Of a DNA stretch of 64,000 nt, positions 44,590 to 64,000 are shown in pieces. The notes under the pieces were generated by a model that saw nothing but the letters and a program-made list of their open reading frames with translations, did no database searches and had not been told where the DNA came from. Source of the DNA: a virus; IMG/VR virus record IMGVR_UViG_3300042396_000723, positions 32,185 to 96,184 of that record; one strand, 5' to 3'. Made by a program: the position numbers and the translations under genes. Every line of letters starts with the position of its first letter. Position 1 is the first letter of the stretch.

Positions 44590-45555
44590 ATGTATAAAAA
44601 GATGACACCAACAGAAACTTCAGTAAAATTAGCGATTGCACAAGTCTTGTCAATGCCTTCTGTTTTTAACGCACCTCTTTACGTCTTGGATTTTAACATT
44701 GACGAAAAAGGGACGGTATCAGGAAGGTTTAGAGATGCTGCTAGACCCCGTGTATTTAGCTATGAGATTGCAGACGATGGAATAACCTTTAGTCCCTTTG
44801 TCCCTGGAAGAATGGATAGCAGTGACTGGAAAGTAGAAGACTGGGAGAAGTTTTCAGATGGCTATTCGTTTAGGATTGACGCAGGGATGCAAAAACGAAC
44901 CGACAAGCCAAAATGTAATCCGGCTGTTTCTTTTTCTTGTGGAAAGGCTTGTGTTAGTTTAAAAAAGAAATGCAAAACAGATCCTCAAGATCCGACTTCT
45001 GTAGCCAAGAAAGAAAAATTAAAAGCTGTTATTAAAGAGGTTACAGTTACCGACAAGACGAGCAAAATTAAAGTCAGTAAGGATAAATCTAGTAAGCCCA
45101 AAGCCAATAAATTGATCAATGACCTAGAACCCTTAGAGCCATTAAACACCTCTCGGACACCCACTGAAACCGTGTTACCTGAGCTAAGTTCTAACAATGT
45201 TGTTAAGGGTCTTGGTGGTAAAGTGGGCAGAGGAAAATATTCAGGCGATGCGGGTAGGGATTTTGAAGATACTGGCAAGATGATGAACTACCCACTAAAA
45301 AGCGTTGTAGCCACAAAGGACATGAAAGGGAAGGAAAAAGAAGTGGCAGACGTAGCAAAAATGTTGAAAGAATCCGAGAGAAATTGGCTCCCTGTTTATG
45401 TCAAAGAAGTTAGACCTTACGAGTATGAAGTTGTCGGAAATCATTTGACCCATGCAGCAGCAATAAAAGCAGGGTTTGAGAGGATTTGGACTATTCCGGT
45501 TGATTCAGATCCGGCTACTCTCAAACAGATTCAAATGTTAACAAACGGTAATTAA
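44590..45555 (+). CDS. modular family member A: conserved N-domain, 4-Cys linker, ParB/Srx-like C-terminus (tentative)
   Basis: N-domain (KLAIAQVLSMP...GRFRDAARPRVFSYEI...GYSFRIDA) and KPKCNPAVSFSCGKACVSLKKKCKTDPQD shared with the paralogs; C-terminus LPVYVKEV...YEVVGNHLTHAAAIKAGFERIWTIPV resembles ParB-like domains. Confidence 0.5.
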   Translation: MYKKMTPTETSVKLAIAQVLSMPSVFNAPLYVLDFNIDEKGTVSGRFRDAARPRVFSYEIADDGITFSPFVPGRMDSSDWKVEDWEKFSDGYSFRIDAGMQKRTDKPKCNPAVSFSCGKACVSLKKKCKTDPQDPTSVAKKEKLKAVIKEVTVTDKTSKIKVSKDKSSKPKANKLINDLEPLEPLNTSRTPTETVLPELSSNNVVKGLGGKVGRGKYSGDAGRDFEDTGKMMNYPLKSVVATKDMKGKEKEVADVAKMLKESERNWLPVYVKEVRPYEYEVVGNHLTHAAAIKAGFERIWTIPVDSDPATLKQIQMLTNGN

Positions 45556-45997: not shown

Positions 45998-48900
45998 ATG
46001 GTCACAACCTTAAACCGTCAAAATCCCCGTCGCCTTGATGCTGCTCCTACGGAAGTGCAGATGAAACTTGGTATTTCTCAAGTTTTGTCGATGCCATTTG
46101 CCTACAACTCTCCGGTTATCGTTCTGGATTTTGAAGTAGGCAATAAAAACATCATCAAGGGACGGTTTAAGGATGCCATTAGATCCCGTGTTTTTGAGTT
46201 TGAGATTGGGGATTCTATCACGTTCAAGCCGTTCACCTGGAGGCGAACGGATAGCGACGTTGACCCGATGGCATGGGAAGACTTCTCTAAAGGGTATTGC
46301 TACCGATTCGATGCAGTCAAGACCGTCAGAAAGGAAAAACCTAAGTGTGGCAATACTTCTTATAACTGCGGTAAAGCCTGCATTGGCTTAAACAAGAATT
46401 GCAAATCAGATCCCCCCGATAAACCGTCCCAGGAGAAAGTTGATAAACTCAGAGCCGCGGCAGGGGAGTTTAAAGCTGTTCAGGGCGATCCAACCAAGAA
46501 GCAAGAGGATAATAAGTTAACGCCAAAACCACAGGAAGTTAAGGAAGTCGCGCCCACCCCCTCTCCCGATAAAGCAGAAGTCCCTGTCACCGACCTTGCT
46601 AAACAGCCACCTGTTGCCTTAAAAATTGGTAAAAAATCAGTCAACCTAAAAGACGACCTTGATTCCTACAAAGATTTAAGAATAACCGCCGATCCCGTTT
46701 TAGGTTGGCAAGTTATCAATAAGAATGGGAACGTACTGAGAGAACCGCCCAAGGGCAACACGGCTCCAAGTCATAGATTCAAGAAAAGAGAGCAGGCTGA
46801 AAAGTTTGCTAACGATGTGATGACACGGGTTGAGAAGTTGCAGAAGGCTCAACCAAAACCGGATGCTGATGTAAGTGACTCTGATAAAAGGTCATTTGAA
46901 AGTCTTTACACCACAAAATTATCATCCGCCCAACAGTTGCTTAACTTAGAAAAAAACGCAAAAATAGCGCGAATATCTCCCAGTGAAGATCAAAAAAATT
47001 ATGACAAAAAACAACCCGACCTCAATATTGATTCGGGGCCAGGAATAATGGAAGGTTGGAGGACTGCGAAACCAGACGGATCTGTCCAGGGAATCCCTTG
47101 GTCTGTCAAGGCGGAGGGTCAAGAAAAGTCACGGGCTATCGTGGGTGCTAGATTAACGGATCATCCAGCCAGCCCTAATTTAAAAAGACTCAGGTTATAC
47201 GACGCAGACGGACGTAATGAGACAATTGACTTCAAAAAGGGTGATAGAAACGCATCTCTTAGGGCTAGAAGACTTGTTAGAGAAATCGCACAAGGAAAGT
47301 CTCAAGAGATGGAATCTGGCGACATAAAAGCGTTGATTGAGGGAGGTAAAGAGGGTTTAGCTAAAAGAAAAGTGGAAAAGGCAAGATTAGCTGCTGAAGA
47401 CAAGCAATTTAAAGCAGCCTTAGATGATTATTTAAAATCAAAAAACCTAACAAGAGAAAGCATTAAAGGTTTGACCGATATCGGAATGGACGATCTTATC
47501 GAAAAAGTTGAGAAATACCAGAAATCACGATCTCAAACCCCCAATTCAGCAGGGGATAAGGGTGCGGGGGGTAAAACGTTTGACCTAAATGATTTATGGC
47601 GACAAACCGCCGACGCTGCTTATTCTAAAAACAAAGATGGTGTCTCAAAAAATCTTGAGCAATGGAAGGAAGTTGTAAAAAAATTAGAGTCAGGAGAAGG
47701 GATCTCTAAAGACGTTAACTTAAACGAATACGAAAAGTTAATGGATAATTTAGAAAAAAAATTAGTCCTCGATCCCAAAGATCCGTCTAATGTTGAATTT
47801 AAAAAGATTACGGGATCTATTTCTAAGATTCTTAGTAAAGCAGGCAGTCTCAACCCGTTAACACAAGAAGACCTAGAAAAAGCTCACCCTAACTTTAGAC
47901 CAATCATGCAACGAATTAATAAAACCGTTGCTAAGGATTATGAATTATTTGACAAAAAAGAGCGAGTTCAAAAAGAGTTAAATAGCCTAAAACAAGAAAA
48001 ATCTTATAACGAGGCTGTGATATTAAATAATTCAAAACGATTCCGAGAAATAGGTATTAATAATAACGAGGTAGAAATTCAAAGACTTTCCAAGAAAAAA
48101 CCGAGCGATTCAGTTGAGGTTAGAAATCCTGTCTCAAATTTACCAGAAAGGACTATTTCGGCATCCAAACGGATTAAGGAACTTCAAGATGAAATTGGGG
48201 AATTGAATAATAGTGAAAAAGCTAAAATAGAAGAAGACAGGGCTAGAAAAGAAATAGCCCGATTGCAAAGCCCAATGAAGGATGCAGAGAGTAGAATAAA
48301 CGCCATTTTAGACGAGAAGAAAAAATTAAGGGAATCTCGCGGCGGATCTAGTTCACAATCAGAACCCAAGCAAACCCCAAATTCAGTAGGGGTTGATGGT
48401 GCGGGGGGTAAATCAGTTGATCAACAATATAAGGATATAATTGCTAAGTCGAAAGATCCAAAGGGAACAGAGGAAGTTTTATCGTCAGCATTAAGAGGTG
48501 GGTTTGGTGACTTTGAAAGAAAAAATTATAACGAATATTCAACCGCTATAAAATCTGGGACTGTTCCAAAAGGAATGGGGAACTATTATCAAAAACAAGT
48601 CGACAAATATAAACCCATTATTGAGGCGGAAGATTTTATTAACGAAAGGAAGAAAAAAGCAATTAGTGGAGACTATGAAACAGAACAAGAAGCTGGGGTT
48701 TATGTTCTTAATAAATTAAAGCAAAAAGGCTACAAAGAACACGAATATTATGACAGTCCAGACTATGAAAAAGATTATGGAAAATTGGTGGGGGTAATGA
48801 AATCTGTTAAACTTCCTCCGCCGTTGTCTGGTATCGTCCCCGGTAAAGAATTAAAACAGACATTAACTCCGGGTGACAAACTACTTGTTAAAGAGGATAC

Positions 48901-49282
48901 TTATTCGTTAATGAGTAGTGGAAATACCCCTACTGGCTATCGAATAGTTGATGGTGGCGAAGTTTTAAAGGTTAATGTCAAGAATGTTAAAACCCGCGTT
49001 AGAGGCGAATACATGGGGAAACCCTACGAGAACGAGCCGTCTCTCGCTCTTGATAAAGTTACCCACGTCATCCGAGATGGTAAACGTTACAAGGTAGATG
49101 ATTCTGATAGATCCCCCAATGACTTAAAGTCGGAATCCTCCAAATCCCAGAAAGCAGTAAAACAAAAGGCAGTAAAACAGAAAGCAATAAAAGTTCAAGG
49201 GGAGCGATCGCAAAAACAAGAATCCCCTCTAATTCCGAAAGAGGAAATAGTTAAAGATGCTCCAATACTGATGTTAAGGTAA
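45998..49282 (+). CDS. modular family member B: N-domain, 4-Cys linker, long Lys/Glu-rich helical C-terminal region
   Basis: 1094 aa; N-domain and KPKCGNTSYNCGKACIGLNKNCKSDPPD shared with paralogs; C-terminal region has internal repeats (SAGDKGAGGKTFD / SVGVDGAGGKSVD; QKAVKQKAVKQKAIK). Confidence 0.5.
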   Translation: MVTTLNRQNPRRLDAAPTEVQMKLGISQVLSMPFAYNSPVIVLDFEVGNKNIIKGRFKDAIRSRVFEFEIGDSITFKPFTWRRTDSDVDPMAWEDFSKGYCYRFDAVKTVRKEKPKCGNTSYNCGKACIGLNKNCKSDPPDKPSQEKVDKLRAAAGEFKAVQGDPTKKQEDNKLTPKPQEVKEVAPTPSPDKAEVPVTDLAKQPPVALKIGKKSVNLKDDLDSYKDLRITADPVLGWQVINKNGNVLREPPKGNTAPSHRFKKREQAEKFANDVMTRVEKLQKAQPKPDADVSDSDKRSFESLYTTKLSSAQQLLNLEKNAKIARISPSEDQKNYDKKQPDLNIDSGPGIMEGWRTAKPDGSVQGIPWSVKAEGQEKSRAIVGARLTDHPASPNLKRLRLYDADGRNETIDFKKGDRNASLRARRLVREIAQGKSQEMESGDIKALIEGGKEGLAKRKVEKARLAAEDKQFKAALDDYLKSKNLTRESIKGLTDIGMDDLIEKVEKYQKSRSQTPNSAGDKGAGGKTFDLNDLWRQTADAAYSKNKDGVSKNLEQWKEVVKKLESGEGISKDVNLNEYEKLMDNLEKKLVLDPKDPSNVEFKKITGSISKILSKAGSLNPLTQEDLEKAHPNFRPIMQRINKTVAKDYELFDKKERVQKELNSLKQEKSYNEAVILNNSKRFREIGINNNEVEIQRLSKKKPSDSVEVRNPVSNLPERTISASKRIKELQDEIGELNNSEKAKIEEDRARKEIARLQSPMKDAESRINAILDEKKKLRESRGGSSSQSEPKQTPNSVGVDGAGGKSVDQQYKDIIAKSKDPKGTEEVLSSALRGGFGDFERKNYNEYSTAIKSGTVPKGMGNYYQKQVDKYKPIIEAEDFINERKKKAISGDYETEQEAGVYVLNKLKQKGYKEHEYYDSPDYEKDYGKLVGVMKSVKLPPPLSGIVPGKELKQTLTPGDKLLVKEDTYSLMSSGNTPTGYRIVDGGEVLKVNVKNVKTRVRGEYMGKPYENEPSLALDKVTHVIRDGKRYKVDDSDRSPNDLKSESSKSQKAVKQKAVKQKAIKVQGERSQKQESPLIPKEEIVKDAPILMLR

Positions 49283-50186: not shown

Positions 50187-50262
50187 CCAAAACAGTAGGA
50201 GGGATGCGTTAAAACATCCTTTCTCTGTACTAAGATCGGGGTATATCCTACTTTTTAACCCC

Positions 50263-50682
50263 ATGCTATCCCTAAGATTTAACGCCAATCAAGTCCGAAA
50301 TTATCTAAATAAATTAATTAAAAAGTTTCAGAATCTTAACCCCGAACTGCATAAAGTTGGGCAGTTTATGGTGGCATCAACCGATGAGAACTTCCAAAAG
50401 GAACAGAGTCCTTATGGGGAGAAATGGGAACACTTAGCACCATCAACCCTCAAATACAAGGCAAGTCGGGGTTTTATTATGCAAATATTACAACGCCAAG
50501 GATTGTTGCGATCTTCTATTCGGTATCGGATTGAAAAAGGAAGGGTTGAGGTAGGGAGTCCATTGCCCTATGCCTCCTATTTACAAGAAGGCACTAAGAA
50601 AATGCCTAAACGTCAATTTTTAGGAGTAAGTCAACGCGATCGCAGGGAGATTATCGCTATTCTAAAGGATTCTCTTCGTTGA
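50263..50682 (+). CDS. virion morphogenesis protein candidate (Mu G-like)
   Basis: 139 aa; C-terminal LPYASYLQEGTKKMPKRQFLG resembles the Mu gpG-type signature; located in the head module. Confidence 0.4.
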   Translation: MLSLRFNANQVRNYLNKLIKKFQNLNPELHKVGQFMVASTDENFQKEQSPYGEKWEHLAPSTLKYKASRGFIMQILQRQGLLRSSIRYRIEKGRVEVGSPLPYASYLQEGTKKMPKRQFLGVSQRDRREIIAILKDSLR

Positions 50683-51031
50683 TCTCGACGAGTTTATCAA
50701 TAAGACCTGGGTTGATTTCTTGAGGGATTTCTTGCTCAATAATCTTTAAAGTTTCCTTAGTCCAAGCAAGGATCAATCGTTCTGCCTCCGATTGATCCTC
50801 AGAAATTAACGAAGCGATAATCAATAGTTCTACGAAATCCGTCCGTCGCTCCCCCATTAAAATCCGTCGAATTGTCTGCCAATCCCATCCACTTTTTTCA
50901 CTAAATTCCATCATCCCAAAATTTGCATTTATAAGATCCCGTCGAATTGACCGACCAAGAGCGCGATAGGGAGCCAACGCACCAGATCCTAGTGTCTTCT
51001 TAGAAGGATACTCTCTTTTGATAGTAGTCAT
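50657..51031 (-). CDS. HTH-containing small protein, antisense insert in the head module
   Basis: 124 aa minus-strand ORF converging on the previous gene; segment FSEKSGWDWQTIRRILMGERRTD resembles an HTH. Confidence 0.35.
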   Translation of the reverse strand: MTTIKREYPSKKTLGSGALAPYRALGRSIRRDLINANFGMMEFSEKSGWDWQTIRRILMGERRTDFVELLIIASLISEDQSEAERLILAWTKETLKIIEQEIPQEINPGLIDKLVEINEENPLE

Positions 51032-51065
51032 TATTTATATCTAAATCATTGGTTTAATTTTAGTC

Positions 51066-51090
51066 GATTTTCTTATATAGAAATTATTTT
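51066..51090 (+). promoter_or_regulatory. conserved 25-bp element GATTTTCTTATATAGAAATTATTTT, copy 2
   Basis: Exact repeat of 44048-44072; lies 71 bp upstream of the ATG at 51161. Confidence 0.4.
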
Positions 51091-51160
51091 TTTACACCAT
51101 CTTTAAATGACTGATAAGGTGCGTTATTCTTTAACAAGAATTATTTTTTTGTATTGAGAA

Positions 51161-52675: not shown

Positions 52676-53505
52676 TGCGGTACAATTACAATCTTCAATT
52701 TGATCGGGCGACTCCTGGCATGGGCGAGGGATCTATTAATTTTCCGAGGGTCAAAGCCCTTGTTTCTGTCAAGAATGCTGTTAAAGAGGTCTGGACTCTG
52801 GCGGTTCCTGCCTCCCCCACTTCTAGCACTACATATACCGTCAAATTAAACAACGGACTAGGTACGGCACGTTTTACAACCGACGCTAGTGCCACTCAAG
52901 CGGAACTGCAAGCTGGTTTATTGAATGCAATCCGAATAAACCCTGCTTTTGGGCGACGAGGGATTGCTGCTGTTAGTGGGAATAATGTGTTGTTTACAGC
53001 ACTGGAATATGGTATCGAAAATATCCTAACAGTTACTGGTGCTAGTTTAACAGCAACTAAAACTACGGCGATGACCATACCTCTTCCTGTCCCCTTCGGT
53101 CGGTTTGTCGCCAGAGCAAACACTGAAACCGATCCCAAAGTTGCAGGGCTTCCTACTGCTATTACTGACGTAATCCTGGGCATTACTCGAATCGTCAAAG
53201 ATATCGAAATGCAGCCTTTGATAAATCAAGGTGCAAGCTATGGTGGAACGACTTACCCATATCAAGATGTGATGGACGTGGTTGACCGGACAGGAGAATC
53301 GTCAGGGATCTGGGTTGAATGTGTCGAGACGGATATCACAATTAATGATGCCGTCTATGTCTCTATTGCTGCGGGACACGAGGGGAAAGCAACAAAGGTG
53401 ACAAGTGGCACGATTAATATCTCCACGAAGGCTGAGTTCAAGTGTTCCCCCGTAGTCACTAGCACTGGTGCGGTGTGCGTTTTGATCGGCTTCAATGTTC
53501 CCTAA
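52675..53505 (+). CDS. head structural protein candidate
   Basis: 276 aa, Thr/Ala/Gly-rich; start overlaps the scaffold-like gene stop. Confidence 0.35.
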   Translation: MRYNYNLQFDRATPGMGEGSINFPRVKALVSVKNAVKEVWTLAVPASPTSSTTYTVKLNNGLGTARFTTDASATQAELQAGLLNAIRINPAFGRRGIAAVSGNNVLFTALEYGIENILTVTGASLTATKTTAMTIPLPVPFGRFVARANTETDPKVAGLPTAITDVILGITRIVKDIEMQPLINQGASYGGTTYPYQDVMDVVDRTGESSGIWVECVETDITINDAVYVSIAAGHEGKATKVTSGTINISTKAEFKCSPVVTSTGAVCVLIGFNVP

Positions 53506-53530
53506 TTTGTATAGAAAGAATTTATAAACT

Positions 53531-54484
53531 ATGATGAACTTTTCTGGGACTACAAGGTTAGATGCTGATGAAATCGGCACGTTCTTTGGCTCTCTGATGG
53601 ATTTAGAGGCTCAGATAGATAAGGAATTTGACCTTGCGGACTATCCTTTCGCTGCTGGAGTCATTTGCCCTCTGAATATCCAAAACAAGCCCTGGGCAAA
53701 AACCTGGGGGTATCGGTGGCTCCGCCACGTTGGGCAGTTCAAGTTAATCCGAAACTACACCACAGACCTTCCCGAAGTGGAACTGGTCTATGGCGAGATG
53801 AAGATGCCGATTCATAAATGGGGACAAGGCTATAGCGTCTCTGAGGATGATATCGCGGCTGTTAGTCGGATGGGCGAGAGTATTGAAGAAGACAAAATCT
53901 GGACAATTCAAGAAGCCGCACAACAAAAAATCAATCAGTTGGTGGCAAACGGGGATTTAGAAACAGGAATGCCCGGTTTCTTGAATCATCCCCAAGCACT
54001 GCGGTCTTATGCTCCCTTCCCTTTGAACGGGTCAGCAACATCACAGCAAAAACTGAGTGTATTGAATGATTGTGTTAATGCTCCGACTCGGCTGACCAAT
54101 AACCGAGAGAAGCCGGACACATTGTTGATGGATTCGGAAACTTACGAACACCTCTCCTCGGATATTATTCAAATCGGCACATCCGCATTGGATCGTACGG
54201 TGTTAGAGCATTTCTTAAAAGTCAACCCTAATATCAAAGAAGTCGGCGTTGTGTCCGAGATGGCTCCTGACTATTTAGAGTCGATTGGTTTAGCTCCCAC
54301 CCGCTTTATTCAGGCTTTCCGTCGAGATCCCAAAAAAGTCTCTGCTAAGATTTATCAACCGTTAAAGTGGACTGATACTCGCCCCATTGGTGTTGATTCT
54401 TTCTGGCGTGGTGCCAAGTTTAAGTTTGGGGGAATTGATCTCAAACGCCCATTCTCCATGCACGTTGTAGTATTACCTGAATAA
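53531..54484 (+). CDS. major capsid protein candidate
   Basis: 317 aa ORF downstream of the scaffold-like gene, with a strong RBS context; assignment by position and size. Confidence 0.4.
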   Translation: MMNFSGTTRLDADEIGTFFGSLMDLEAQIDKEFDLADYPFAAGVICPLNIQNKPWAKTWGYRWLRHVGQFKLIRNYTTDLPEVELVYGEMKMPIHKWGQGYSVSEDDIAAVSRMGESIEEDKIWTIQEAAQQKINQLVANGDLETGMPGFLNHPQALRSYAPFPLNGSATSQQKLSVLNDCVNAPTRLTNNREKPDTLLMDSETYEHLSSDIIQIGTSALDRTVLEHFLKVNPNIKEVGVVSEMAPDYLESIGLAPTRFIQAFRRDPKKVSAKIYQPLKWTDTRPIGVDSFWRGAKFKFGGIDLKRPFSMHVVVLPE

Positions 54485-54486
54485 AA

Positions 54487-54966
54487 ATGTCTAAAACTAT
54501 CATCTTTGACCCCAAACTAAATCCTCACAATCCACGCATTCCCTATGGAATATCAGTGGAGGCTATCACTTCGCCGATTCGTTTTTCCCGTCCCATTAAT
54601 CGTGGGGGAACCAAGAAAACTTCCTTAGATGCGGTAGAAACACGGGGGAGTTGGATTCTTCCTGGGACTAATTTAGAACTTCCCGACGAGGACTATGAGT
54701 ATATTACTCGGCATCCTCTCGGATTACAACTTATTAATTGCGGAGCATTCAGAATCATCTCTCCCACACTAGAGGAAGGGAAGTTTCCCACTGAAACAAC
54801 CCTTGATTATATTGAAAAAGATGCCCTCGATCTGATTCGCAATTCTAGCGATATTGATTGGTTAGAACGATCCGAGAAAAGAGAAGGTCGTCCCGCTATT
54901 TCTAGGGCAATAGCAGAGCAAATCAAGAATATCAAGTCAGTCAATACTATGAACATCCGGGGGTAG
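54487..54966 (+). CDS. head-associated protein candidate
   Basis: 159 aa ORF following the capsid-like gene. Confidence 0.35.
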   Translation: MSKTIIFDPKLNPHNPRIPYGISVEAITSPIRFSRPINRGGTKKTSLDAVETRGSWILPGTNLELPDEDYEYITRHPLGLQLINCGAFRIISPTLEEGKFPTETTLDYIEKDALDLIRNSSDIDWLERSEKREGRPAISRAIAEQIKNIKSVNTMNIRG

Positions 54967-54969
54967 TAA

Positions 54970-55305
54970 ATGGTTCTCCCTTCCGAATTTTTAGCGGTTT
55001 ATCCTCAGTTCGCTGTGGTCGAATCTTCTGTGATTCAATACAGTTTAAACTTTGCCGAGAATAATTACTGCGCTGGTTGGGCAGATCCCAAGAGAACGGA
55101 TGGAATTATGTTGATTGCTGCCCATCGAATCAGCGTTGATTGGTTCCAACAGGCGGATATTGCCTCTAGTGTTACGGGAATCGCATCGGGGTCAGGGAGT
55201 TCCACCCCTTCTGGCTCCGAGAATGATTGGTCTTTAACGACTTACGGGAGGCAATATATCCACCTCCGCAATACTATCTTCACTCCCCCTATTTTGGTCT
55301 TATGA
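54970..55305 (+). CDS. hypothetical protein (head completion region)
   Basis: 111 aa ORF. Confidence 0.3.
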   Translation: MVLPSEFLAVYPQFAVVESSVIQYSLNFAENNYCAGWADPKRTDGIMLIAAHRISVDWFQQADIASSVTGIASGSGSSTPSGSENDWSLTTYGRQYIHLRNTIFTPPILVL

Positions 55306-55487
55306 AAGTACAGTTCCCTGATTTCTCAGTTGATAATGGTCGAGTTACTTCTGCCGGGATGGTAACTCCTGCTTCCCCAGAATTGCAAGCTATGGCAGCG
55401 ATTTATGTGGTGTTACAAGAAATTAACGAGAAGTTAGACAAATCAGACCACGCCCCGGTTTCTCATACTCCTAAAGAGAAGAAATGA
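55302..55487 (+). CDS. hypothetical small protein
   Basis: From the internal ATG at 55302, which overlaps the upstream stop (ATGA); the track ORF starts at 55227. Confidence 0.3.
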   Translation: MKVQFPDFSVDNGRVTSAGMVTPASPELQAMAAIYVVLQEINEKLDKSDHAPVSHTPKEKK

Positions 55488-55903
55488 GTCAATCTTTCGT
55501 TGAGCAAATGATAGCCCTAAGAGACCGAATCTCTCCCCTTGCGGGGGGATTTGGCAATCCCAACATTCAAAACCTCGTCGTTCGCACAAGAGTGGGCGAT
55601 GGGTACGAATATTTGGAGATTTCCCCAACTCCGGTTATCCAAAAACAATTCCCAAACAAGGAGGGGATTGAAAACCTAAGCTCAGTGGAGGGGATAACTA
55701 GATCCTATTCAGTTAAAGGGATTTCACGGCGTTATTTAGAGGTGCAATTGAAAGGGGAGGGGGTTGACTATCTAGTCGGAGCCGATACTACTTATTACCC
55801 TCCTGATGGCGTTGTTTGTAACTTAGTCTCACTAACAGAAAATGTTGTGACGTGGGACATGGAGTTAGTTGAGAAGATTAGCTCACAAGGTTTTTATTTG
55901 TGA
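55484..55903 (+). CDS. hypothetical protein
   Basis: 139 aa ORF; start overlaps the previous stop. Confidence 0.35.
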   Translation: MSQSFVEQMIALRDRISPLAGGFGNPNIQNLVVRTRVGDGYEYLEISPTPVIQKQFPNKEGIENLSSVEGITRSYSVKGISRRYLEVQLKGEGVDYLVGADTTYYPPDGVVCNLVSLTENVVTWDMELVEKISSQGFYL

Positions 55904-55940
55904 TTAACTCACAAGGTTTCTATTTATAAAAGGTAAAATC

Positions 55941-57365
55941 ATGCTGAAATCAAAACCAAGTTCTTTGTATCGGGTTGATGAAGATGAAGTAGCAATGGGA
56001 AGTGGTGGGAGAGGAACTGCACCAACCGAAGCCCAAATGAAGCTATTTATTGCCCAAACTTTGTCAATGAACTTCGCCTATAACGCCCCAGTTGTTGTGC
56101 TTAAATTTGATGTTGCCGAGAATGGGAATATTGCCGGATTATTTAAAGATGCGGCACGTCCACGGATGTTTTCCTTTACCTTAGACGGGGAGTCCGTAAC
56201 TTATAAGCCTTACAAACCTGGTAAAATGGACAGCTTGGAATCAGACGAGGATGTCCAAGAATGGGAGGCATTTTCAGAGGGGTACGGGTTCCGCGTAGAT
56301 GCGGGGGTAGGGGGCAAAAAAAAGCCTCAATGCGTTAAGCCCACCGCTTACAATTGTGGGAGTGCCTGTATTAATGTGATGAAGGACTGTAAGACTAACG
56401 CCAAAGATGCAGTTTCTAAGGATAGGCTTAAAAAGTTGAAAGGTGTGGCGATGTCTTATTACAAGGAATTTGAGAAACTTGATAAGACAGAAAGAGGCAG
56501 TGACAAACAGAAGGGATTTGGCGACAAATCAAATCAAGCTAGTCGGAAAAGAGTTGAATTGATGGAGCAATCCAAAAGCAAAAAGGGGGTAAAGTCGGAC
56601 GAACCCCAGATCAAGCCCAAGGCAGAAAGTAAAAAGCCTTCTACTCAAAAATTATCAACACAGAAAACGGTAGAACCCGAAGTTAAAACCAAGCCAAACG
56701 TAGAACCTAAAAAGACGGAATCCAAGCCAAAGTCCAAAGCCAATCCCTTTTATAGTGACGAACCAATTAAGGATTATGAGACTTTTAAAAAGGAAATACC
56801 AAAAGAACTGGCTAGGTTTAATTTTGAATACAATATGGACGGGTTGATCCCTATTCCAAGAATGAGAGAGGAATTAAAAGGGAGAGTAAAAGCAGAGGAC
56901 TTTGATAAGTGGATGCTACAGTCTCAAGCCGATAATGATAATATTCGACTTAGTGAAGGGCAAAAGAAAATGCCAGGGGGGATAAAAACCGAACTAGGAA
57001 ACCACAGGGATAACATTCGATTTTTTGACAAAGAGGCTATGGAAAAAGCTAGGACTGAAACGAAAAGAAAACCCGGTCAAATAATAGATCCAAAAGAATT
57101 TGAAGACGTGGCAATGAAGTCCTTAACCGATCTTGATAAGGACGGGAAATATGGCAATCTCATCCCTATTCATGAACTCAGAAAAACCCTTGGCGACAAA
57201 GTAAGTCGAGGGGATTTCAATAATTTATTGATGGAAATGCAGGCAAATGACAAGGTTCAATTAATTGGGGGTCAAATGACAGATGCCACCCCAAAAAAAG
57301 TGGAGGACTCTGTTGTATCAGAGCTGGGGGCATATCGTTATTACGTTAAAATCCTCAAGGATTAA
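55941..57365 (+). CDS. modular family member C: N-domain, 4-Cys linker, duplicated C-terminal domain
   Basis: 474 aa; KPQCVKPTAYNCGSACINVMKDCKTNAKD; the C-terminus carries two related ~45-aa units (GLIPIPRMREELKGRVKAEDFDKWMLQSQADNDNIRL / GNLIPIHELRKTLGDKVSRGDFNNLLMEMQANDKVQL). Confidence 0.5.
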   Translation: MLKSKPSSLYRVDEDEVAMGSGGRGTAPTEAQMKLFIAQTLSMNFAYNAPVVVLKFDVAENGNIAGLFKDAARPRMFSFTLDGESVTYKPYKPGKMDSLESDEDVQEWEAFSEGYGFRVDAGVGGKKKPQCVKPTAYNCGSACINVMKDCKTNAKDAVSKDRLKKLKGVAMSYYKEFEKLDKTERGSDKQKGFGDKSNQASRKRVELMEQSKSKKGVKSDEPQIKPKAESKKPSTQKLSTQKTVEPEVKTKPNVEPKKTESKPKSKANPFYSDEPIKDYETFKKEIPKELARFNFEYNMDGLIPIPRMREELKGRVKAEDFDKWMLQSQADNDNIRLSEGQKKMPGGIKTELGNHRDNIRFFDKEAMEKARTETKRKPGQIIDPKEFEDVAMKSLTDLDKDGKYGNLIPIHELRKTLGDKVSRGDFNNLLMEMQANDKVQLIGGQMTDATPKKVEDSVVSELGAYRYYVKILKD

Positions 57366-57466
57366 ACAAGATCAAATAGCTACAAGCCGAAAGTGTTAAA
57401 AGAAATAGCAGTAGGAACATATAGAAATCCTTAATTAAGTTACAGGCAAAAGGAATATCAAAAAAC

Positions 57467-59332
57467 ATGATCATAGAGACTAAATCAGCCCCAACAAAAG
57501 CTCAAATGCAAGCAGCGATCGCCCAGACTCTTGCTCTTCCTTTTGCCTATAACTCCCCAGTGGATGTGATGGACTTTAAGGTAGATGGCACGGGTAAAAT
57601 ATCAGGGCGATTCAAGGATTCTGCCCGTCCAAGGGTGTTTGATTTTGAGTTAGATGGAAATACCGTCAACTTCAAACCTTACACGACAGGACGTATGGAT
57701 TCGGACGATGCAGTGGAACAATGGGAGGAGTTCTCGTCAGGGTATTCCTATCGTTTTGATGCTAAGGCAAAAGCCAAGGCGAAAAGCAAGACAGGAGACT
57801 CCAAGAAACCCCAATGCGTTAAACCCACAGCATATAATTGCGGAAAAGCCTGTATAAATATTAATAATAATTGTAAATCCAACCCCGACGATGCTAACTC
57901 AAAGGATCGTTTAGAAAAACTGAAAGCTGCTGGTATTGATTACGCTAAAGAAACTAAGAAATCCACTCCTAAATCTACCGCAAAAACCAAGAAAGAGGTA
58001 GAAAAACCACCGGAAATAGATAAAACCCCTAAAATAGATAAAACCCCTGAAAAGATAGAGGGAAAGGCTACCGAGTCCAAATCCCTTAATTTAGTAGGAA
58101 AAGGGGATCACGAGTCCGTCCCCAAAGATGCGAATGAATACTATGAAGCAATGAAAACATCGGGCAATCCTATCTCTTATGACGATGCCATAAAGATTAC
58201 CGGAGCCGTTAGAGAGTGGACGGAGGATGCTTCTTATATTAGGGAATCTCAAAAAGCAGGGAAATACAGCATTATTGCCGACCGGATTAATGATTACGTT
58301 AAAAGTTCAACGCCATTCAAGGGCGAAATTTATCGAGGCATCTCCTTCGGATCAACAGATGAGGCTTTGAGTTGGGCTAAGGGAGATAGTGATGGGATAT
58401 TAGATAATCAGAATGCCCATGCTTCTTGGACTTCTAACTGGGATAAAGCCAGAAAGTTTGCTGGTAACAATTCGGTAAACGACTTTACATCGCAACCTGT
58501 CATTATCAAAACAAATAATAAGTCGGGTGCCTCCATCAAAAACCTAAGCAACATTGGCACAGAAGATGAGGTAGTGGTTGTCAAAGACACTCGCCATCGG
58601 GTTAAGAATGTTGTATACGAAGATGGTGTTTTGATCGTTGAGACAGAAGAAGTTTCTCCAGATGAGGGAAAGAAAGCGCCTGAACCATCACCAGAAATAA
58701 CTAAACCCCAAAAAGAATCCGAGGAAAAGGCAGTTAAACAACCCGAAAATAAACCCAAAAACCTTAATTTAGTGGGCAAAGGCGATCATGAATCCATGCC
58801 ATCAAGCCACAAAGAGTATTATAAAGCACTGAAAAAAGCAGGGGTCAATATTTCTGAGAAGGAGGCAGCAGCCACCACTACAGCCATCTATAAATGGACG
58901 AGGAATGCTAACGACATCCGAGCCGATCAAAAGGCAGGAGAGGAGAACGAAGATGCAAATCGAATCTCTAATTATGTCAGGAACTCAACCCCATACAAAG
59001 GCGAAGTTTACCGAGGGATTCACTTTGAAACCAAAGAGGAGGCTTTAAACTGGACTAAAGGCGACAAGGATGGAGTGCTAGATAATCAAGGTGCTCACGC
59101 CTCTTGGTCATCTAGCCTTAAAACAGCAGAAGAATTTTCAGACGATTTCTTTATTGAGGAAAAAAGATATCCTGTTGTCATTAAATCAATCAACAAATCA
59201 GGTGCTTCTATTAAGAATTTAAGCAACATCAAAGAAGAAGACGAGGTTATGGTTTTAAAGGATACTCGCCATCGGGTTAAAAGTGTCAGGGAAGAAAACG
59301 GACGGATTATTGTTGAAGCTGAGGAAGTATAG
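57467..59332 (+). CDS. modular family member D: N-domain, 4-Cys linker, two tandem ADP-ribosyltransferase-like domains
   Basis: 621 aa; each duplicated C-terminal unit has INDYV / ISNYV, YRG (KGEIYRGISF / KGEVYRGIHF), an STS-like HASWTS / HASWSS, and ExE followed by hydrophobics (TEDEVVVV / EEDEVMVL), matching the R-S-E ART motif order. Confidence 0.55.
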   Translation: MIIETKSAPTKAQMQAAIAQTLALPFAYNSPVDVMDFKVDGTGKISGRFKDSARPRVFDFELDGNTVNFKPYTTGRMDSDDAVEQWEEFSSGYSYRFDAKAKAKAKSKTGDSKKPQCVKPTAYNCGKACININNNCKSNPDDANSKDRLEKLKAAGIDYAKETKKSTPKSTAKTKKEVEKPPEIDKTPKIDKTPEKIEGKATESKSLNLVGKGDHESVPKDANEYYEAMKTSGNPISYDDAIKITGAVREWTEDASYIRESQKAGKYSIIADRINDYVKSSTPFKGEIYRGISFGSTDEALSWAKGDSDGILDNQNAHASWTSNWDKARKFAGNNSVNDFTSQPVIIKTNNKSGASIKNLSNIGTEDEVVVVKDTRHRVKNVVYEDGVLIVETEEVSPDEGKKAPEPSPEITKPQKESEEKAVKQPENKPKNLNLVGKGDHESMPSSHKEYYKALKKAGVNISEKEAAATTTAIYKWTRNANDIRADQKAGEENEDANRISNYVRNSTPYKGEVYRGIHFETKEEALNWTKGDKDGVLDNQGAHASWSSSLKTAEEFSDDFFIEEKRYPVVIKSINKSGASIKNLSNIKEEDEVMVLKDTRHRVKSVREENGRIIVEAEEV

Positions 59333-59343
59333 GAGATTTAACT

Positions 59344-59436
59344 ATGAGTTTAACGACTAGAAAAGATGCCATGCTAACGGAATCTCAGATGAAGTTGGCG
59401 ATCGCCCAGACTCTTGCCCTTCCTTTTATGTTCTGA
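59344..59436 (+). pseudogene. truncated N-domain remnant upstream of family member E
   Basis: Reads MSLTTRKDAMLTESQMKLAIAQTLALPFMF then stop; identical in pattern to the opening of members D and G but ends after ~30 codons, indicating a deletion of the rest of the N-domain. Confidence 0.4.
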
Positions 59437-59437
59437 A

Positions 59438-60532
59438 ATGAAAAAACCCCAATGCGTAAAGCCAACATCATATAACTGCGGAGCGGCTTGTATCAACGTT
59501 TCCAAATCTTGCCAACAAGTCCCTTCTGAATCTTTTGGGCGATCGCGTCTTCAGAAGTTAAAACAAATTGCTTCTATTTATGCGAAGCAAAACACAGCAA
59601 AATCTCAAAGACAAGGGGCTACGGCTAACAAGATCATAGGATCAATTGAAGAAAAAAGGAAAACTGAAGCGACATCTTTGGCACAAGACAGAAAAGTTAT
59701 TAACCAAGACCGTAGAAAAGCTAGGTTAAAAGCCGAAGCAAAAGCCAAGAGAGAGCAACTATTAAAGATGTATGAAGATGTTAGTAAAACGTCAACATCA
59801 AAAGGCAATGTCCCCAAACTTTTGAATACAGAAGCTCCTGACAGGGAGCTAACAAGGTTAAAAAATAAGTACGAAAAGCAATCGGTTGAAACGGCAAAGA
59901 CCAACCTACAAAAAGCCGAGAGAGCGCTAAGTAGTGCGCTTAAAACTATAGGGGAGATGAAACAGGAGTCTGATAAATTCCTAGAAGAAACCCGAAAACT
60001 GGTACAGGTAGACAAACCTACTAAATTAAACTCATCGGTCAAAACCGGAACCCCTAACGCCCATAAAAAAGGTGTTGAGGCGTTCCAAAAAATGATCTCA
60101 ATTCCAGGCTTGGACACTCCAGTTAGTATTGTGGAAACCCCTCCAGAAAGGAAGGGGAGAAGTTGCTACAAACCCAAGACAAATAATGTATTCATGGGTA
60201 ATTCCGACCCTGCCGTTGTAGTTCATGAGATGAGTCACTGGCTAGAGGAGAAAGTACCAGGAATCAGAGAGGAAGTTCAGGAGTTTTATAATAAGAGAAC
60301 CCAAGGCGAGAAAAATATTAAACTAAGTGAAGTTACTGGCAATAAAAACTATGGGGATAGAGAGGTTACAAAGGTTGATAAATGGTTAAATCCTTACATG
60401 GGCAAGGAATACAAAAACGCCTCTGAAATCCTTTCTATGGGAATGGAAATAATGTACCGCAACCCTGCTTATTTAGCCAAGAATGACCCCGAAATGTTCG
60501 ACTTTATTTATAGTGTTGTGAGGAGAGGATGA
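59438..60532 (+). CDS. modular family member E: 4-Cys linker plus HExxH domain, N-domain deleted
   Basis: Starts at ATG 59438 (MKKPQCVKPTSYNCGAACINVSKSC...); C-terminal VVVHEMSHWLE ... SMGMEIMYRNPAYLAKNDPEMFDFIYSVVRRG shared with F and G. Confidence 0.5.
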   Translation: MKKPQCVKPTSYNCGAACINVSKSCQQVPSESFGRSRLQKLKQIASIYAKQNTAKSQRQGATANKIIGSIEEKRKTEATSLAQDRKVINQDRRKARLKAEAKAKREQLLKMYEDVSKTSTSKGNVPKLLNTEAPDRELTRLKNKYEKQSVETAKTNLQKAERALSSALKTIGEMKQESDKFLEETRKLVQVDKPTKLNSSVKTGTPNAHKKGVEAFQKMISIPGLDTPVSIVETPPERKGRSCYKPKTNNVFMGNSDPAVVVHEMSHWLEEKVPGIREEVQEFYNKRTQGEKNIKLSEVTGNKNYGDREVTKVDKWLNPYMGKEYKNASEILSMGMEIMYRNPAYLAKNDPEMFDFIYSVVRRG

Positions 60533-61668
60533 TTAAATACAGAGAAGACAAGAGGGAAAAGAAAGCTCAATGCGTGAAGACTACTTCCTATAATTGCGGT
60601 CTATCTTGCATTAATGTTAAGAAAAATTGCAGGATAGTCCCGAATGATTCAAGGTCAAAGGATAGGCTTGAAAAGCTGAAAACAATGGGGATTGATTACG
60701 CTAAAATTAGACCCTCAAAGTCTAAAGTTAAGCCGACACCAACCCCTATTCCGGTCATTCCCGCGCCAGTGATACCCGCGCCAGTCGTAATGCCAGAACC
60801 CGAAGTTAAAGAGACTCCAGAGCAAAGGAAAGCGAGGTTACAAATAGAATCAAGAGTTGTTCGGCAACGACTCGTGGGGATGTATGATGATCTTGAGCAT
60901 GAAGAGAAAAGAAATCCAATCAAAGCCAATCAAAATGCCATAATAGCAATTAACGAAGAAAACCCCAAAAAGTTTTTAACTAGCAGGATAAAATTCTCTA
61001 ATTCAAGAGCGAAGGATTATATTAAAACAAATCCAGAAAAAGCTCAGACATATGTGGATGCTGCCAAAATCGACCTAGAACCTGCACTAGCTAAAGTTAA
61101 CGATCTTTTGGGTGAAGCCAGAAAATTAGTTGAAGTAAAGAATCCGTCATCATTTAATATAAAACAAAAAGGGGATAATATAATCCTTTACAAACACTTG
61201 TTAGATAAAGGAATTGACGCTTTTCAGAGGTTGGTCGATGTACCAAAATTGAGAAGTCCTGTCTCCATCGTAGTAACAGAACCATTGGGAAGCAGAAGCT
61301 CTTATTCTGACGCTGCAAAGAAAATCACACTAGGAACTGATGACCCGTCTGCCATTGTCCATGAGTTAGCGCATTGGTTGGATTTGTCTGACAATGGGGT
61401 CAAAAAAGAAGTTTTAGAATTTTACAATAAAAGAACGGAGGGAGAAAAAACGGTAAAGTTAAGTGATGTTAGCAAAAACCCATATAGTAATGATGAAGTA
61501 ACTAAAGTTGATAAGTGGTTAAATCTTTATATGGGAAAAGTTTATCCTGACAAGTCAACGGAAATCCTCTCAATGGGTTTAGAATTAATGTATAAGAACC
61601 CAGTATATCTAGCAAAAAAAGACCCCGAAATGTTTGACTTTATTTACTCAGTAGTTAGGAGAGGTTAG
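60529..61668 (+). CDS. modular family member F: 4-Cys linker plus HExxH domain, no N-domain
   Basis: 379 aa; AQCVKTTSYNCGLSCINVKKNCRIVPND; Pro-rich PVIPAPVIPAPVV tract; C-terminal IVHELAHWLD ... SMGLELMYKNPVYLAKKDPEMFDFIYSVVRRG; its ATG overlaps the E stop. Confidence 0.5.
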   Translation: MIKYREDKREKKAQCVKTTSYNCGLSCINVKKNCRIVPNDSRSKDRLEKLKTMGIDYAKIRPSKSKVKPTPTPIPVIPAPVIPAPVVMPEPEVKETPEQRKARLQIESRVVRQRLVGMYDDLEHEEKRNPIKANQNAIIAINEENPKKFLTSRIKFSNSRAKDYIKTNPEKAQTYVDAAKIDLEPALAKVNDLLGEARKLVEVKNPSSFNIKQKGDNIILYKHLLDKGIDAFQRLVDVPKLRSPVSIVVTEPLGSRSSYSDAAKKITLGTDDPSAIVHELAHWLDLSDNGVKKEVLEFYNKRTEGEKTVKLSDVSKNPYSNDEVTKVDKWLNLYMGKVYPDKSTEILSMGLELMYKNPVYLAKKDPEMFDFIYSVVRRG

Positions 61669-61669
61669 C

Positions 61670-61945
61670 ATGGCTTATCGCGTTAAAATCAATGGTGTAG
61701 TGGCAATTGTTGAAAATGGCGTTTGGTCATCCTCAACACCCCATTATGCCGAAATTCTAAATAACGTCTTGGCAATGGAGAAATTGGCAGCCATAGACCC
61801 TGATTCGCCTTTTTTCTGGCTTAATTCCCCTGCAACACCCGACCCAGATTGGTTAATTGCCACCGAAATAGCCAAAACCTTTGAGGGGACGGTGATGGAT
61901 CAACCGATTACTCCTCTGACAACAGACGAAGATATTATTTATTAA
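61670..61945 (+). CDS. hypothetical small protein following an HExxH-domain gene
   Basis: 91 aa ORF starting 2 nt after the F stop; possible accessory or immunity-type partner (speculative). Confidence 0.3.
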   Translation: MAYRVKINGVVAIVENGVWSSSTPHYAEILNNVLAMEKLAAIDPDSPFFWLNSPATPDPDWLIATEIAKTFEGTVMDQPITPLTTDEDIIY

Positions 61946-61949
61946 TGCG

Positions 61950-63401
61950 ATGAAGTTCAATCCAAATGCTACGGTTTCCGAGACTCAAATGAAGTTAGCG
62001 ATCGCTCAAACGTTATCGCTCCCATTTGCCTATAATTCGCCCGTGATGGTGTTGGATTTTGATTTAGGGGATAAGGATAGTAACAAGATAACAGGGCGAT
62101 TCAAAGACTTATCCCGTCCCCGCGTGTTCAGTTTTGAGATAACCAAGAAGTCAGTTGTCTATAAACCCTTCGTGGCTCGAACTGATAGCACGGAATTGGA
62201 TGCTAAATCGTGGGAAGATTTCTCGAAAGGTTACTCTTATCGAGTTGATAGTCAAGGCTTGAGAAAGGAAAAAGCTCAATGTGTCAAGCCGACTTCTTAT
62301 AACTGTGGGAGTATTTGTATTAATATTAAGAAAAACTGTAAGGCTAATGCTGATGATGACTTTTCGGAAGAACGGATTGACAAGCTATTTAAGTTAAGAA
62401 GATATTATACAGACAAATTATTGGAAATAAATCCAAGTACACAAAGAGAAGAAGAGACTCTCCTTGAAGAAAAAGTCCGAGAAGTCTCTCGACTACTTAA
62501 ACCATACAATGATCGTCAAAAAGAGCTAGAGAAACAAAAACAGGAGCAAATCAAAGAACAAAGAAGCCGTCAAATAGAAGTATTGAAGTCCGAAGCTCAA
62601 TCGAAAAGAACGCAATTAATGGCATTGTCAAATGAATTAGATAGCAATCAAAAAATATCTTCTGATGCAAGAATTAAGGCATCAGTTCACCTTGAATTCG
62701 ATGATCCAGAAAGCGGAATAAAAAGGGATCTTAAATTTGCTGAAAGTGTTGCTCTAAAACTGAATAAAAATGGACAAAAAGAAGCCGAGATATTCTCCCA
62801 AAATGAGTTAAAAATTGCCATAGAAGCAAAAAAAGAAATTGATAATATTTTAGACAAAGCTCGTGAGTTGATAAAGGTTGAGAAACCAGTTGATATTGGT
62901 GTAGCGTTTGATTCTAAGAATGTAAGAAAACCAGATGAATATAAGAAAGGGCTTGAGATGTTTTCTGAAATGATTTCGGTTCCCAATTTAAAAGAAACAT
63001 TAGAAGTTAAAGAGACAGATTCGGGAAGAAGTTATTACAAACAGGGAGCTATACACATGGCAAATCCAGATCCGGCGACAATCATCCACGAATCAGGGCA
63101 TTGGCTAGAGGCTCGGAATATTCAGGTAAGGAGAGAAGTTAAAGAATTTTATAATAAAAGGACAGAAGGAGAGCCTATTGTCAAATTGAGCGAATCAACG
63201 GGTGATCTCTATGAAGACTATGAAGTTACCAAGGTCGATAAATGGCTTCATCATTACATAGGGAAGTTTTATGGAAACCAGCCTAGTTCCGAGGTTCTGT
63301 CAATGGGATTAGAGATGATGTATAAAAACCCCATTTACTTAGCCAAAAACGATCCCGAAATGTTTGATTTTATCTATTCTGTAGTTAGGCAAGGGAATTG
63401 A
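61950..63401 (+). CDS. modular family member G: N-domain, 4-Cys linker, coiled-coil, HExxH domain
   Basis: 483 aa; KLAIAQTLSLPFAYNSPVMVLDF...GRFKDLSRPRVFSFEI; AQCVKPTSYNCGSICINIKKNCKANADD; C-terminal IIHESGHWLE ... SMGLEMMYKNPIYLAKNDPEMFDFIYSVVRQG. Confidence 0.5.
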   Translation: MKFNPNATVSETQMKLAIAQTLSLPFAYNSPVMVLDFDLGDKDSNKITGRFKDLSRPRVFSFEITKKSVVYKPFVARTDSTELDAKSWEDFSKGYSYRVDSQGLRKEKAQCVKPTSYNCGSICINIKKNCKANADDDFSEERIDKLFKLRRYYTDKLLEINPSTQREEETLLEEKVREVSRLLKPYNDRQKELEKQKQEQIKEQRSRQIEVLKSEAQSKRTQLMALSNELDSNQKISSDARIKASVHLEFDDPESGIKRDLKFAESVALKLNKNGQKEAEIFSQNELKIAIEAKKEIDNILDKARELIKVEKPVDIGVAFDSKNVRKPDEYKKGLEMFSEMISVPNLKETLEVKETDSGRSYYKQGAIHMANPDPATIIHESGHWLEARNIQVRREVKEFYNKRTEGEPIVKLSESTGDLYEDYEVTKVDKWLHHYIGKFYGNQPSSEVLSMGLEMMYKNPIYLAKNDPEMFDFIYSVVRQGN

Positions 63402-63474
63402 AGTTAATGGGTCAATCAAAGCAACAAAGCAAACGCTAAAATGTCTTCCTTGGAGAAAATATAGGAGGGTGGGA

Positions 63475-64000
63475 ATGCTAATAGATAAATCAACTGAAGA
63501 AGACTATCTCAATGGTCGTACTTTTGCTCAGGGTTATTTTTTGCGGATTGACGCAGCTAGAGCCGACGCAGCTAGAGCCACCCCAAAATGCAAGAATGGG
63601 GTTTCTTATAGCTGTGGGAAGTCCTGTATTAGCCTTAAGAAAAATTGCAAGTCAGAACCGCAAGATGAAAAAGGGAAACAAATTCTTAAGGCAGTAAAAT
63701 CCAAGGCTTCTGAGTTTGCTAAAACAAAAGCAAAAACACCCAAAGCTACTCCAGTTAAGCCTACTGAAATTAAGCCAGATGTAGAAGCTCCTCCCCCTCC
63801 CCAAGGTGATATAAAGGTTAAGGCATCTAAATCAAAAACCAAGGTATCAAAACCCGTCGCAGTGGAAGCAGAGAAAAAAGCGACTCCTGCCAAAACCAAA
63901 AAAGCAAAACCCTCAACAAAGCTTAGTGAAGTTAGCAAAGAGCAGAAGAAAGTGGAGGCGATCGCAAAACCATCCAAAACAATAGGAGATGGAACTCATG
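63475..64000 (+). CDS. modular family member H (partial, runs off window): truncated N-domain, 4-Cys linker, Lys-rich region
   Basis: ATG at 63475 preceded by AGGAGG; FAQGYFLRIDAARADAARATPKCKNGVSYSCGKSCISLKKNCKSEPQD; contains a 15-bp tandem duplication (GACGCAGCTAGAGCC x2); no stop before the window end. Confidence 0.45.
   Translation, partial: MLIDKSTEEDYLNGRTFAQGYFLRIDAARADAARATPKCKNGVSYSCGKSCISLKKNCKSEPQDEKGKQILKAVKSKASEFAKTKAKTPKATPVKPTEIKPDVEAPPPPQGDIKVKASKSKTKVSKPVAVEAEKKATPAKTKKAKPSTKLSEVSKEQKKVEAIAKPSKTIGDGTH

Follow-up and report, generated by a model that had tools for sequence, protein, structure and literature searches.

The open reading frame (ORF) 57467-59332 lies on the plus strand of a 64,000-nucleotide (nt) stretch of viral DNA (positions 32,185 to 96,184 of IMG/VR record IMGVR_UViG_3300042396_000723; the whole stretch is referred to here as the window) and raises the question of what a protein with two ADP-ribosyltransferase (ART)-like domains does when it is encoded inside a virion-assembly gene block. 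A preliminary description, made from the sequence alone, had proposed that the C-terminal two-thirds of this protein consist of two homologous ART-like units in a head-module protein and that a host-modifying enzyme delivered by the phage was plausible. The ORF was present as described and encodes 621 amino acids (aa). Our analysis confirmed the duplication and supported the ART reading, and delivery into the host by the phage is plausible. With a probability of about 60%, we favor the explanation that the protein is a host-modifying enzyme with two ARTs that is carried in the phage particle.

Two ADP-ribosyltransferase units in one polypeptide

The gene was divided into the following segments.

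57467..59332, plus strand: whole gene, 621 aa, comprising an N-terminal domain (N-domain), a four-cysteine (Cys4) motif, a linker, ART unit 1, a second linker, and ART unit 2
57467..57781, plus strand: N-domain, aa 1-105, one helix and a four-stranded sheet, found also in four other window genes
57782..57961, plus strand: four-cysteine module, aa 106-165, C117-x7-C125-G-x2-C129-x6-C136 with a long helix after it, in all eight window paralogues
57962..58081, plus strand: linker 1, aa 166-205, of low complexity and rich in Lys, Pro, Thr, and Glu, outside all profile matches
58082..58654, plus strand: ART unit 1, aa 206-396, predicted catalytic residues R290, S320, S323, E366, and E368
58655..58759, plus strand: linker 2, aa 397-431, 35 residues rich in Pro, Glu, and Lys, between the two profile matches
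58760..59329, plus strand: ART unit 2, aa 432-621, predicted catalytic residues R516, S546, S549, E591, and E593

Residues 206-396 and 432-621 are homologous, with 57% identity over 192 aa (E 2e-75). The two units of ~200 aa described earlier were thus recovered at ~190 aa each, and the start proposed for the duplicated region (58079) falls within one codon of the start of unit 1 (58082). The YRG, S-W-T-S/S-W-S-S, and E-D-E motifs noted in that description occur in both units and in the order given there. They correspond to R290, S320 with S323, and E366-E368 in unit 1 (codons 58334-58336 for R290, 58424-58426 for S320, and 58562-58570 for E366 to E368) and to R516, S546 with S549, and E591-E593 in unit 2 (codons 59012-59014 for R516, 59102-59104 for S546, and 59237-59245 for E591 to E593). 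Alignment of the units showed that neither has lost catalytic residues, both retaining the Arg, the S-x-x-S, and the ExE.

The assignment of the units to the R-S-E class of ARTs was examined with profiles and a predicted structure. Pfam PF01129 (NAD:arginine ART) matched the protein in unit 2 with 25.2 bits, above its curated cut-off of 22.3, and PF03496 gave a sub-threshold score of 17.1 bits (cut-off 23.4); in an NCBIfam scan, the only match was to XopAI, far below threshold. From an alignment of 36 sequences, AlphaFold2 gave a model of unit 2 with a predicted local distance difference test score (pLDDT) of 93.8 and a predicted template modeling score (pTM) of 0.88. When this model was compared with solved structures by Foldseek, the best 50 matches were all R-S-E ARTs, among them Vis, Tre1, HopU1, XopAI, ExoS/ExoT, ART2.2, C3, and Plx2A; the best match was Vis (E 3e-10), and TM scores ranged over ~0.5-0.64 across the matches. 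In the model (unit-2 numbering), strand 82-89 contains the Arg, strand 114-117 contains the Ser, and strand 162-165 starts with the last Glu; these positions are, as modeled, canonical for the R-S-E class. Both the ART fold of unit 2 and the placing of the motif residues were thus as the preliminary description had anticipated.

The sequence relationship to characterized ARTs is distant. A single-sequence search of solved structures with the ORF 57467-59332 protein returned no match; a family profile was needed, which among solved-chain sequences reached Vis (E 1.4e-12) and Tre1 (E 1e-5) and only those two. In the profile alignment to Vis/Tre1, YRG pairs with YRG, aSWtS with TSTST/MSTSA, and eEeEV with KEAEV/NEAEV; the Ser motif of our protein is S-W-(S/T)-S, compared with S-T-S in the class. 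A first, word-indexed homologue search gave 2 proteins only, and an alignment query with an exhaustive search was needed to recover the family: exhaustive HMMER searching yielded 774 relatives at E <= 1e-3. When 69 distant relatives were aligned, no column was invariant other than one R, one S, and one E, and matches to PF03496 and PF01129 were found in 47/69 and 41/69, respectively. R-S-ExE is present at these exact columns in 168 of the 197 domain instances from 178 relatives, with R-S-QxE in 8 and MxE in 7. Because 168 of 197 instances keep R, S, and ExE at these columns, the motifs are not chance strings. Taken together, four independent lines (family models, predicted structure, motif alignment, and conservation across the family) support the assignment of both units as R-S-E mono-ADP-ribosyltransferases. 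By sequence and by analogy with characterized members, both would be catalytically competent and of the arginine type.

We then considered the age and maintenance of the duplication. At the DNA level, the repeat persists only as a 46-nt remnant (58077-58122 and 58755-58800, 80% identical), and synonymous sites between unit 1 and unit 2 are saturated (pS 0.78). The duplication is therefore old, and it has been maintained since. Window bases 50000-64000 are 96% identical in DNA to Planktothrix phage PaV-LD (NC_016564/HQ683709), whose ORF079R is the orthologue of our protein (91% identity) and is labeled "hypothetical protein" in both entries. Against PaV-LD, the ratio of nonsynonymous to synonymous substitution rates (dN/dS) was 0.27 for unit 1, 0.19 for unit 2, and 0.275 for the whole gene, indicating purifying selection on both units. 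Divergence between the units is uneven, with 89% identity in the ADP-ribosylating turn-turn (ARTT) loop, 12% in the helix after the Ser motif, and 43% in the N-terminal helices. This pattern is compatible with either a higher enzyme dose or partly different substrates. As to the gene itself, an AAGGAA resembling a ribosome-binding site lies 12 nt 5' of its ATG, and an IMG/VR contig (L006) is 100% identical to the first 170 residues of the protein.

A shared N-terminal handle and its effector cassettes

The N-domain and the Cys4 motif, together referred to here as the handle, are not confined to this gene. The Cys4 motif was found in eight window genes, five of which also carry the N-domain.

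44590..45555, plus strand: paralogue, 321 aa, N-domain, Cys4, and ParB-like C terminus
45998..49282, plus strand: paralogue, 1094 aa, N-domain, Cys4, and a long C terminus with no family match
55941..57365, plus strand: paralogue, 474 aa, N-domain, Cys4, and a C terminus of tandem ~95-aa repeats
57467..59332, plus strand: the gene under study, N-domain, Cys4, and two ART units
59414..60532, plus strand: paralogue, 372 aa, Cys4 only, with HExxH (zincin-like; HEMSH), phrog_33618 E 1.7e-208
60529..61668, plus strand: paralogue, 379 aa, Cys4 and HExxH, orthologue of PaV-LD ORF081R
61950..63401, plus strand: paralogue, 483 aa, N-domain, Cys4, and HExxH
63475..64000, plus strand: eighth paralogue, truncated where the window stops, remnant N-domain, Cys4, linker, and the IGDGTH of a third ART unit

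In the alignment of these paralogues, the invariant columns besides Met1 are the four Cys and one Gly, and the Cys4 module was predicted with a pLDDT of 84-89. The handle of ORF 57467-59332 matched no Pfam family and had no recognizable relative among solved structures. In species-representative bacterial genomes, a single-protein search found only two contigs (L053 and L054), binned in metagenome-assembled genomes labeled Gammaproteobacteria and Acetobacteraceae; they are almost certainly misbinned PaV-LD-like phage contigs.

The regions behind the handle differ widely. The smallest paralogue (44590-45555) has a C terminus like a ParB/sulfiredoxin-like nuclease domain; the window protein itself has no Pfam hit, and its close homologue P0188 carries PF02195. 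The version of 45998-49282 in this window has no ART units, whereas this type ends in 1-3 ART units in PaV-LD (ORF065R/066R; L001 1-2388) and in several IMG/VR contigs, so ART cassettes have been gained or lost there too; the further ART unit of PaV-LD ORF066R is without counterpart in this window. The repeat region of 55941-57365 (aa ~275-474) consists of ~95-aa units that are 29% identical (E 2e-9) and match no family. In the three consecutive HExxH paralogues (phrog_33618), the motif stands behind the Cys4 motif and reads HEMSH, HELAH, and HESGH; no Pfam family scored above threshold for them, and sequence search found no relative of them among solved structures. A 91-aa ORF (61670-61945) lies between the second and third of these genes. 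The truncated gene 63475-64000 matches P0002 and the PaV-LD ORF085R type. The one ART unit of ORF085R shares 44% identity with unit 2 of our protein, and units of this type (PaV-LD, P0007-P0010) have T/M-M/E-E where others have E-x-E, which suggests a different specificity.

The number and combination of ART units also vary among relatives. Relatives and orthologues of ORF 57467-59332 have 1 to 3 units, and 13/178 family proteins have two or three. In the units of these 13 proteins, the catalytic Arg is always present and the (E/Q)-x-E pair is present in all but one; several multi-unit family proteins combine ExE and QxE units. A ~100-kb relative (L003) has, at the corresponding syntenic site, a single ART unit followed by a GNAT gene (P0014); the two activities are fused in P0025, three ART units are joined in P0036, and the N-domain of the neighboring paralogue type is joined to an ART unit in P0016. 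Across 47 IMG/VR loci, the C termini attached to the handle include ART, ART-ART, ART-ART-ART, ART-GNAT, GNAT, HExxH, ParB-like, and other types, among them a long region with 1-3 ARTs at its end and several unassigned C termini. Because one constant handle joins many C termini, these sequence comparisons point to a polymorphic effector family built by shuffling of cassettes on a constant N-terminal module.

Genomic position and the case for delivery in the particle

ORF 57467-59332 is encoded inside the virion-assembly gene block. Upstream are genes for the portal (41814-43802), a protease (DUF2213; 51161-52675), the major capsid protein (53531-54484), and a DUF4054 neck protein (54970-55305); in PaV-LD, the tape-measure gene is downstream of ORF079R, and the gene order around our gene is kept in the ~100-kb relative L003. 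The label "head-module protein" in the preliminary description was right as to the structural block, but the gene is located between neck and tape-measure genes and not strictly among the head genes. In their annotation, the PaV-LD depositors labeled two paralogue products "virion structural protein" (ORF081R) and "minor virion protein" (ORF085R). Relatives of the ART unit are themselves joined to virion-assembly domains: among the 69 distant relatives, 8/69 are fused to Mu F and 9/69 to portal domains. A fusion to an XkdF-type prohead protease was seen in P0034. The nearest viral structural matches outside PaV-LD were ARTs fused to portal, minor capsid, and head-morphogenesis proteins, followed by T4-type Alt.

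Cyanophage CL131, which shares a structural module with PaV-LD, encodes at the same position the 1811-aa ORF048 (L005 6706-12141), which contains the Cys4 motif four times (at aa 18, 627, 957, and 1291). Its N-domain match scored 21.4 bits (i-E 1.8e-5 among 2001 sequences), and 0/2000 shuffled sequences were reported. ORF048 was the top-scoring virion protein in liquid chromatography-tandem mass spectrometry of purified CL131 virions, with 105 peptides and 54.6% coverage (PMC6293099 Table S5). It has several alpha/beta-hydrolase (lipase/esterase) motifs and no ARTs. The four motifs are near-identical (CKVGKxCGDxCIPKxxxC) and appear to mark module boundaries in the polyprotein.

From the position of the gene, the fusions of its relatives, and the virion proteomics of this distant handle homologue, we infer that the ORF 57467-59332 protein is delivered in the phage particle. 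In the mechanism that we favor, the N-domain and Cys4 motif would form a handle, shared by the paralogues, by which the protein is drawn into the particle during assembly. Flexible linkers after the handle would bear two independently folded, catalytically competent mono-ARTs of the R-S-ExE class (arginine-specific, Alt/VIP2/C3-like). At infection, the protein would enter the Planktothrix cell together with the DNA and use host NAD+ to ADP-ribosylate arginines of host proteins, as T4 Alt does, so that the host would be redirected or disarmed at the earliest stage.

Several points weigh against this mechanism. The handle has neither a Pfam family nor a known fold, so its packaging role is proposed from context. 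The link to CL131 concerns the handle and not the ART, and its score is modest. As the gene is between neck and tail genes, the tail lumen is as possible a site as the head. The ExE motif predicts arginine specificity by analogy only, some ART folds being NADases, and the deposited structure of the best structural match, Vis, is a complex with the small guanidino compound agmatine.

An alternative is that the protein is a late-expressed, unpackaged ART, like T4 ModA/ModB, that acts in an already infected cell, where host or phage proteins would be its late-phase substrates, the gene position reflecting timing only. T4 also has unpackaged ARTs (PMC9503650), and, because a scan for promoters and terminators showed nothing above background, the gene is probably co-transcribed with late genes. 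However, such an enzyme would leave unexplained why eight genes place the same non-enzymatic handle before unrelated effectors, which is hard to understand without a common role in trafficking or assembly. It is also at odds with the fourfold occurrence of the handle motif in the mass spectrometry-confirmed CL131 ORF048 and with the fusion of ART-unit relatives to portal, Mu F, and prohead-protease domains, and we consider it unlikely. That the units are inactive ART folds serving as structural parts or adaptors, as the N-terminal domain does in Vip2/iota, is scarcely credible. ART folds can be reused as adaptors in binary toxins, but here R, S, and ExE are kept in both units and across the family, dN/dS is about 0.2-0.27, and the ARTT loop is 89% identical between the units.

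Two further explanations concern the target of the enzyme. The ART fold might serve not for modification of protein arginines but for NAD+ hydrolysis (NAD depletion, countering NAD-based defense) or for modification of a small molecule or nucleic acid. The agmatine complex of Vis, which is the best match in both structure and sequence, would fit this, ART-fold NADase effectors have been reported, and QxE or MxE in the units of some relatives suggests diversified specificities. Set against this are the full R-S-ExE of both units and the fact that the closest characterized relatives (Tre1, HopU1, ExoS, ART2.2, Alt, and Bxa) are protein ARTs, mostly arginine-specific; we regard this explanation as quite improbable. 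The constant N terminus and swappable C-terminal effector also recall a polymorphic toxin of the Mu F/Bxa kind, released by the phage or lysogen against competitors while an adjacent immunity protein guards the producer, and antibacterial Mu F-fused, arginine-specific ARTs do exist (PMC11699363, PMC5576092). This is very improbable for our gene: its product has no match to PF04233 (Mu F), the next gene, a paralogue, begins 81 nt downstream with no small ORF in the gap, and the handle was found on phage contigs only, the bacterial search having given just the two misbinned contigs. A Pfam scan of the window proteins, including 41 ORFs from 1-42000 and leaving out small ORFs and the genome outside the window, found no ADP-ribosylhydrolase, Macro, or NADAR domain.

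Returning to the particle-borne enzyme, we propose tentatively, at somewhat less than even odds, a broader role for the handle. It would be an undescribed virion-targeting or processing module of filamentous-cyanobacterial phages that loads at least eight interchangeable effectors, an independent, Mu F-free equivalent of the polymorphic-toxin/polyvalent systems. The arsenal would comprise zincin-like peptidases, ARTs (1-3 copies), GNAT and ParB-like domains, and several unknown domains. PaV-LD-like phages would encode these in separate genes, and CL131 as one fused 1811-aa polyprotein.

Two neighboring loci deserve mention. The portal gene (41814-43802, plus strand; PF06381, E 2.4e-44) has a C-terminal InPase domain (PF18823, E 5e-26), a fusion type that has been described for polyvalent or head-delivered proteins (PMC5512222), and this domain is another candidate for an injected enzyme in this phage. 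An Ant/KilA-like protein of the anti-repressor type (49458-50186, plus strand; phrog_63, E 7.6e-7) is encoded inside the structural block and adjoins a Phage_tail_S (Mu G-like) gene (50263-50682).

Relation to known systems

The preliminary description had drawn an analogy with binary toxins, which is misleading. Like Vip2, iota Ia, and C2I, the ORF 57467-59332 protein has two R-S-E-class ART-fold domains in one polypeptide. In Vip2/iota/C2I, the N-terminal ART-fold copy has lost catalysis and acts as an adaptor that binds a separate pore-forming component. Here, in contrast, both copies keep the catalytic residues, a disordered linker lies between them, and orthologues have 1-3 copies; general Pfam scans of the window proteins returned no family naming a binding or translocation component. 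We rejected a Vip2/iota-style pair, since no motif has been lost from either unit, selection on each is purifying, and no binding component was found among the window genes.

The closest solved structures are Vis of Vibrio splendidus (4xzj/4xzk) and Tre1 of Serratia proteamaculans (6drh), with which the catalytic motifs align. These are, however, single-domain bacterial secreted or type VI effectors that belong to another delivery system, and the identity is 18-19%. With T4 Alt, likewise a phage enzyme of the ART fold, the likeness is at the fold level only (13-15% identity), T4-like Alt proteins matching in structure at E ~1e-7 to 1e-8. There is a single ART domain in Alt, and its N-terminal capsid-targeting sequence is cleaved by the prohead protease. 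It is packaged in the head, injected, and ADP-ribosylates host RNA polymerase on arginine (PMC9503650).

Injected phage ARTs are well described, including T4 Alt, Alt/VIP2-family ARTs fused to Mu F or portal proteins, and polyvalent proteins (PMC5512222, PMC9503650). Of the phage ARTs, about 44% have a head-packaging context, and injection is predicted for them (PMC9503650). Arginine is the residue modified by ExE ARTs such as Bxa, a Mu F-ART with its immunity proteins (PMC11699363). Our protein resembles the Mu F-, portal-, and prohead-protease-fused Alt/VIP2 ARTs in its C-terminal R-S-ExE ART, its virion-assembly locus, and its predicted packaging and injection with the DNA, and the distant relatives of its ART unit bear those very fusions. 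It differs in that the carrier is an uncharacterized domain with a Cys4 motif and not Mu F, portal, or protease, in that two ART units stand in tandem, and in that it is one of eight carrier-effector paralogues in the phage. Membership among the Mu F toxins was rejected, as neither a Mu F domain nor an adjacent immunity gene was found, nor an ADP-ribosylhydrolase in the scanned ORFs.

As with polyvalent proteins and CL131 ORF048, several effector domains in a string would here be delivered with the particle. The modules of this phage are, however, mostly separate genes, each with its own handle, and ORF 57467-59332 carries ARTs where ORF048 carries lipase/esterase-like motifs. Polyvalent proteins combine at least two disparate activities; ORF 57467-59332 repeats one activity, ART, twice, and those orthologues would qualify in which ART is joined to GNAT or to a long unknown region. 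Judged from its sequence, the protein fits the known kind of injected phage ART functionally and differs by its carrier, its tandem units, both predicted to be active, and its eight-gene array.

ORF 57467-59332 would thus represent a known phage strategy in a new arrangement, and the advance is incremental unless the function of the handle is demonstrated; the shared handle is a more novel element than the ARTs. The host of PaV-LD, Planktothrix agardhii, forms toxic freshwater blooms, and to our knowledge PaV-LD is its only well-characterized phage. The two predicted ARTs, the third ART gene, and the three metallopeptidase-like genes on the shared carrier are candidates for host takeover in a PaV-LD-type phage. 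Effector cassettes shuffled on a handle unrelated to Mu F or portal proteins would, if true, extend the known ways in which enzymes are loaded into phage particles.

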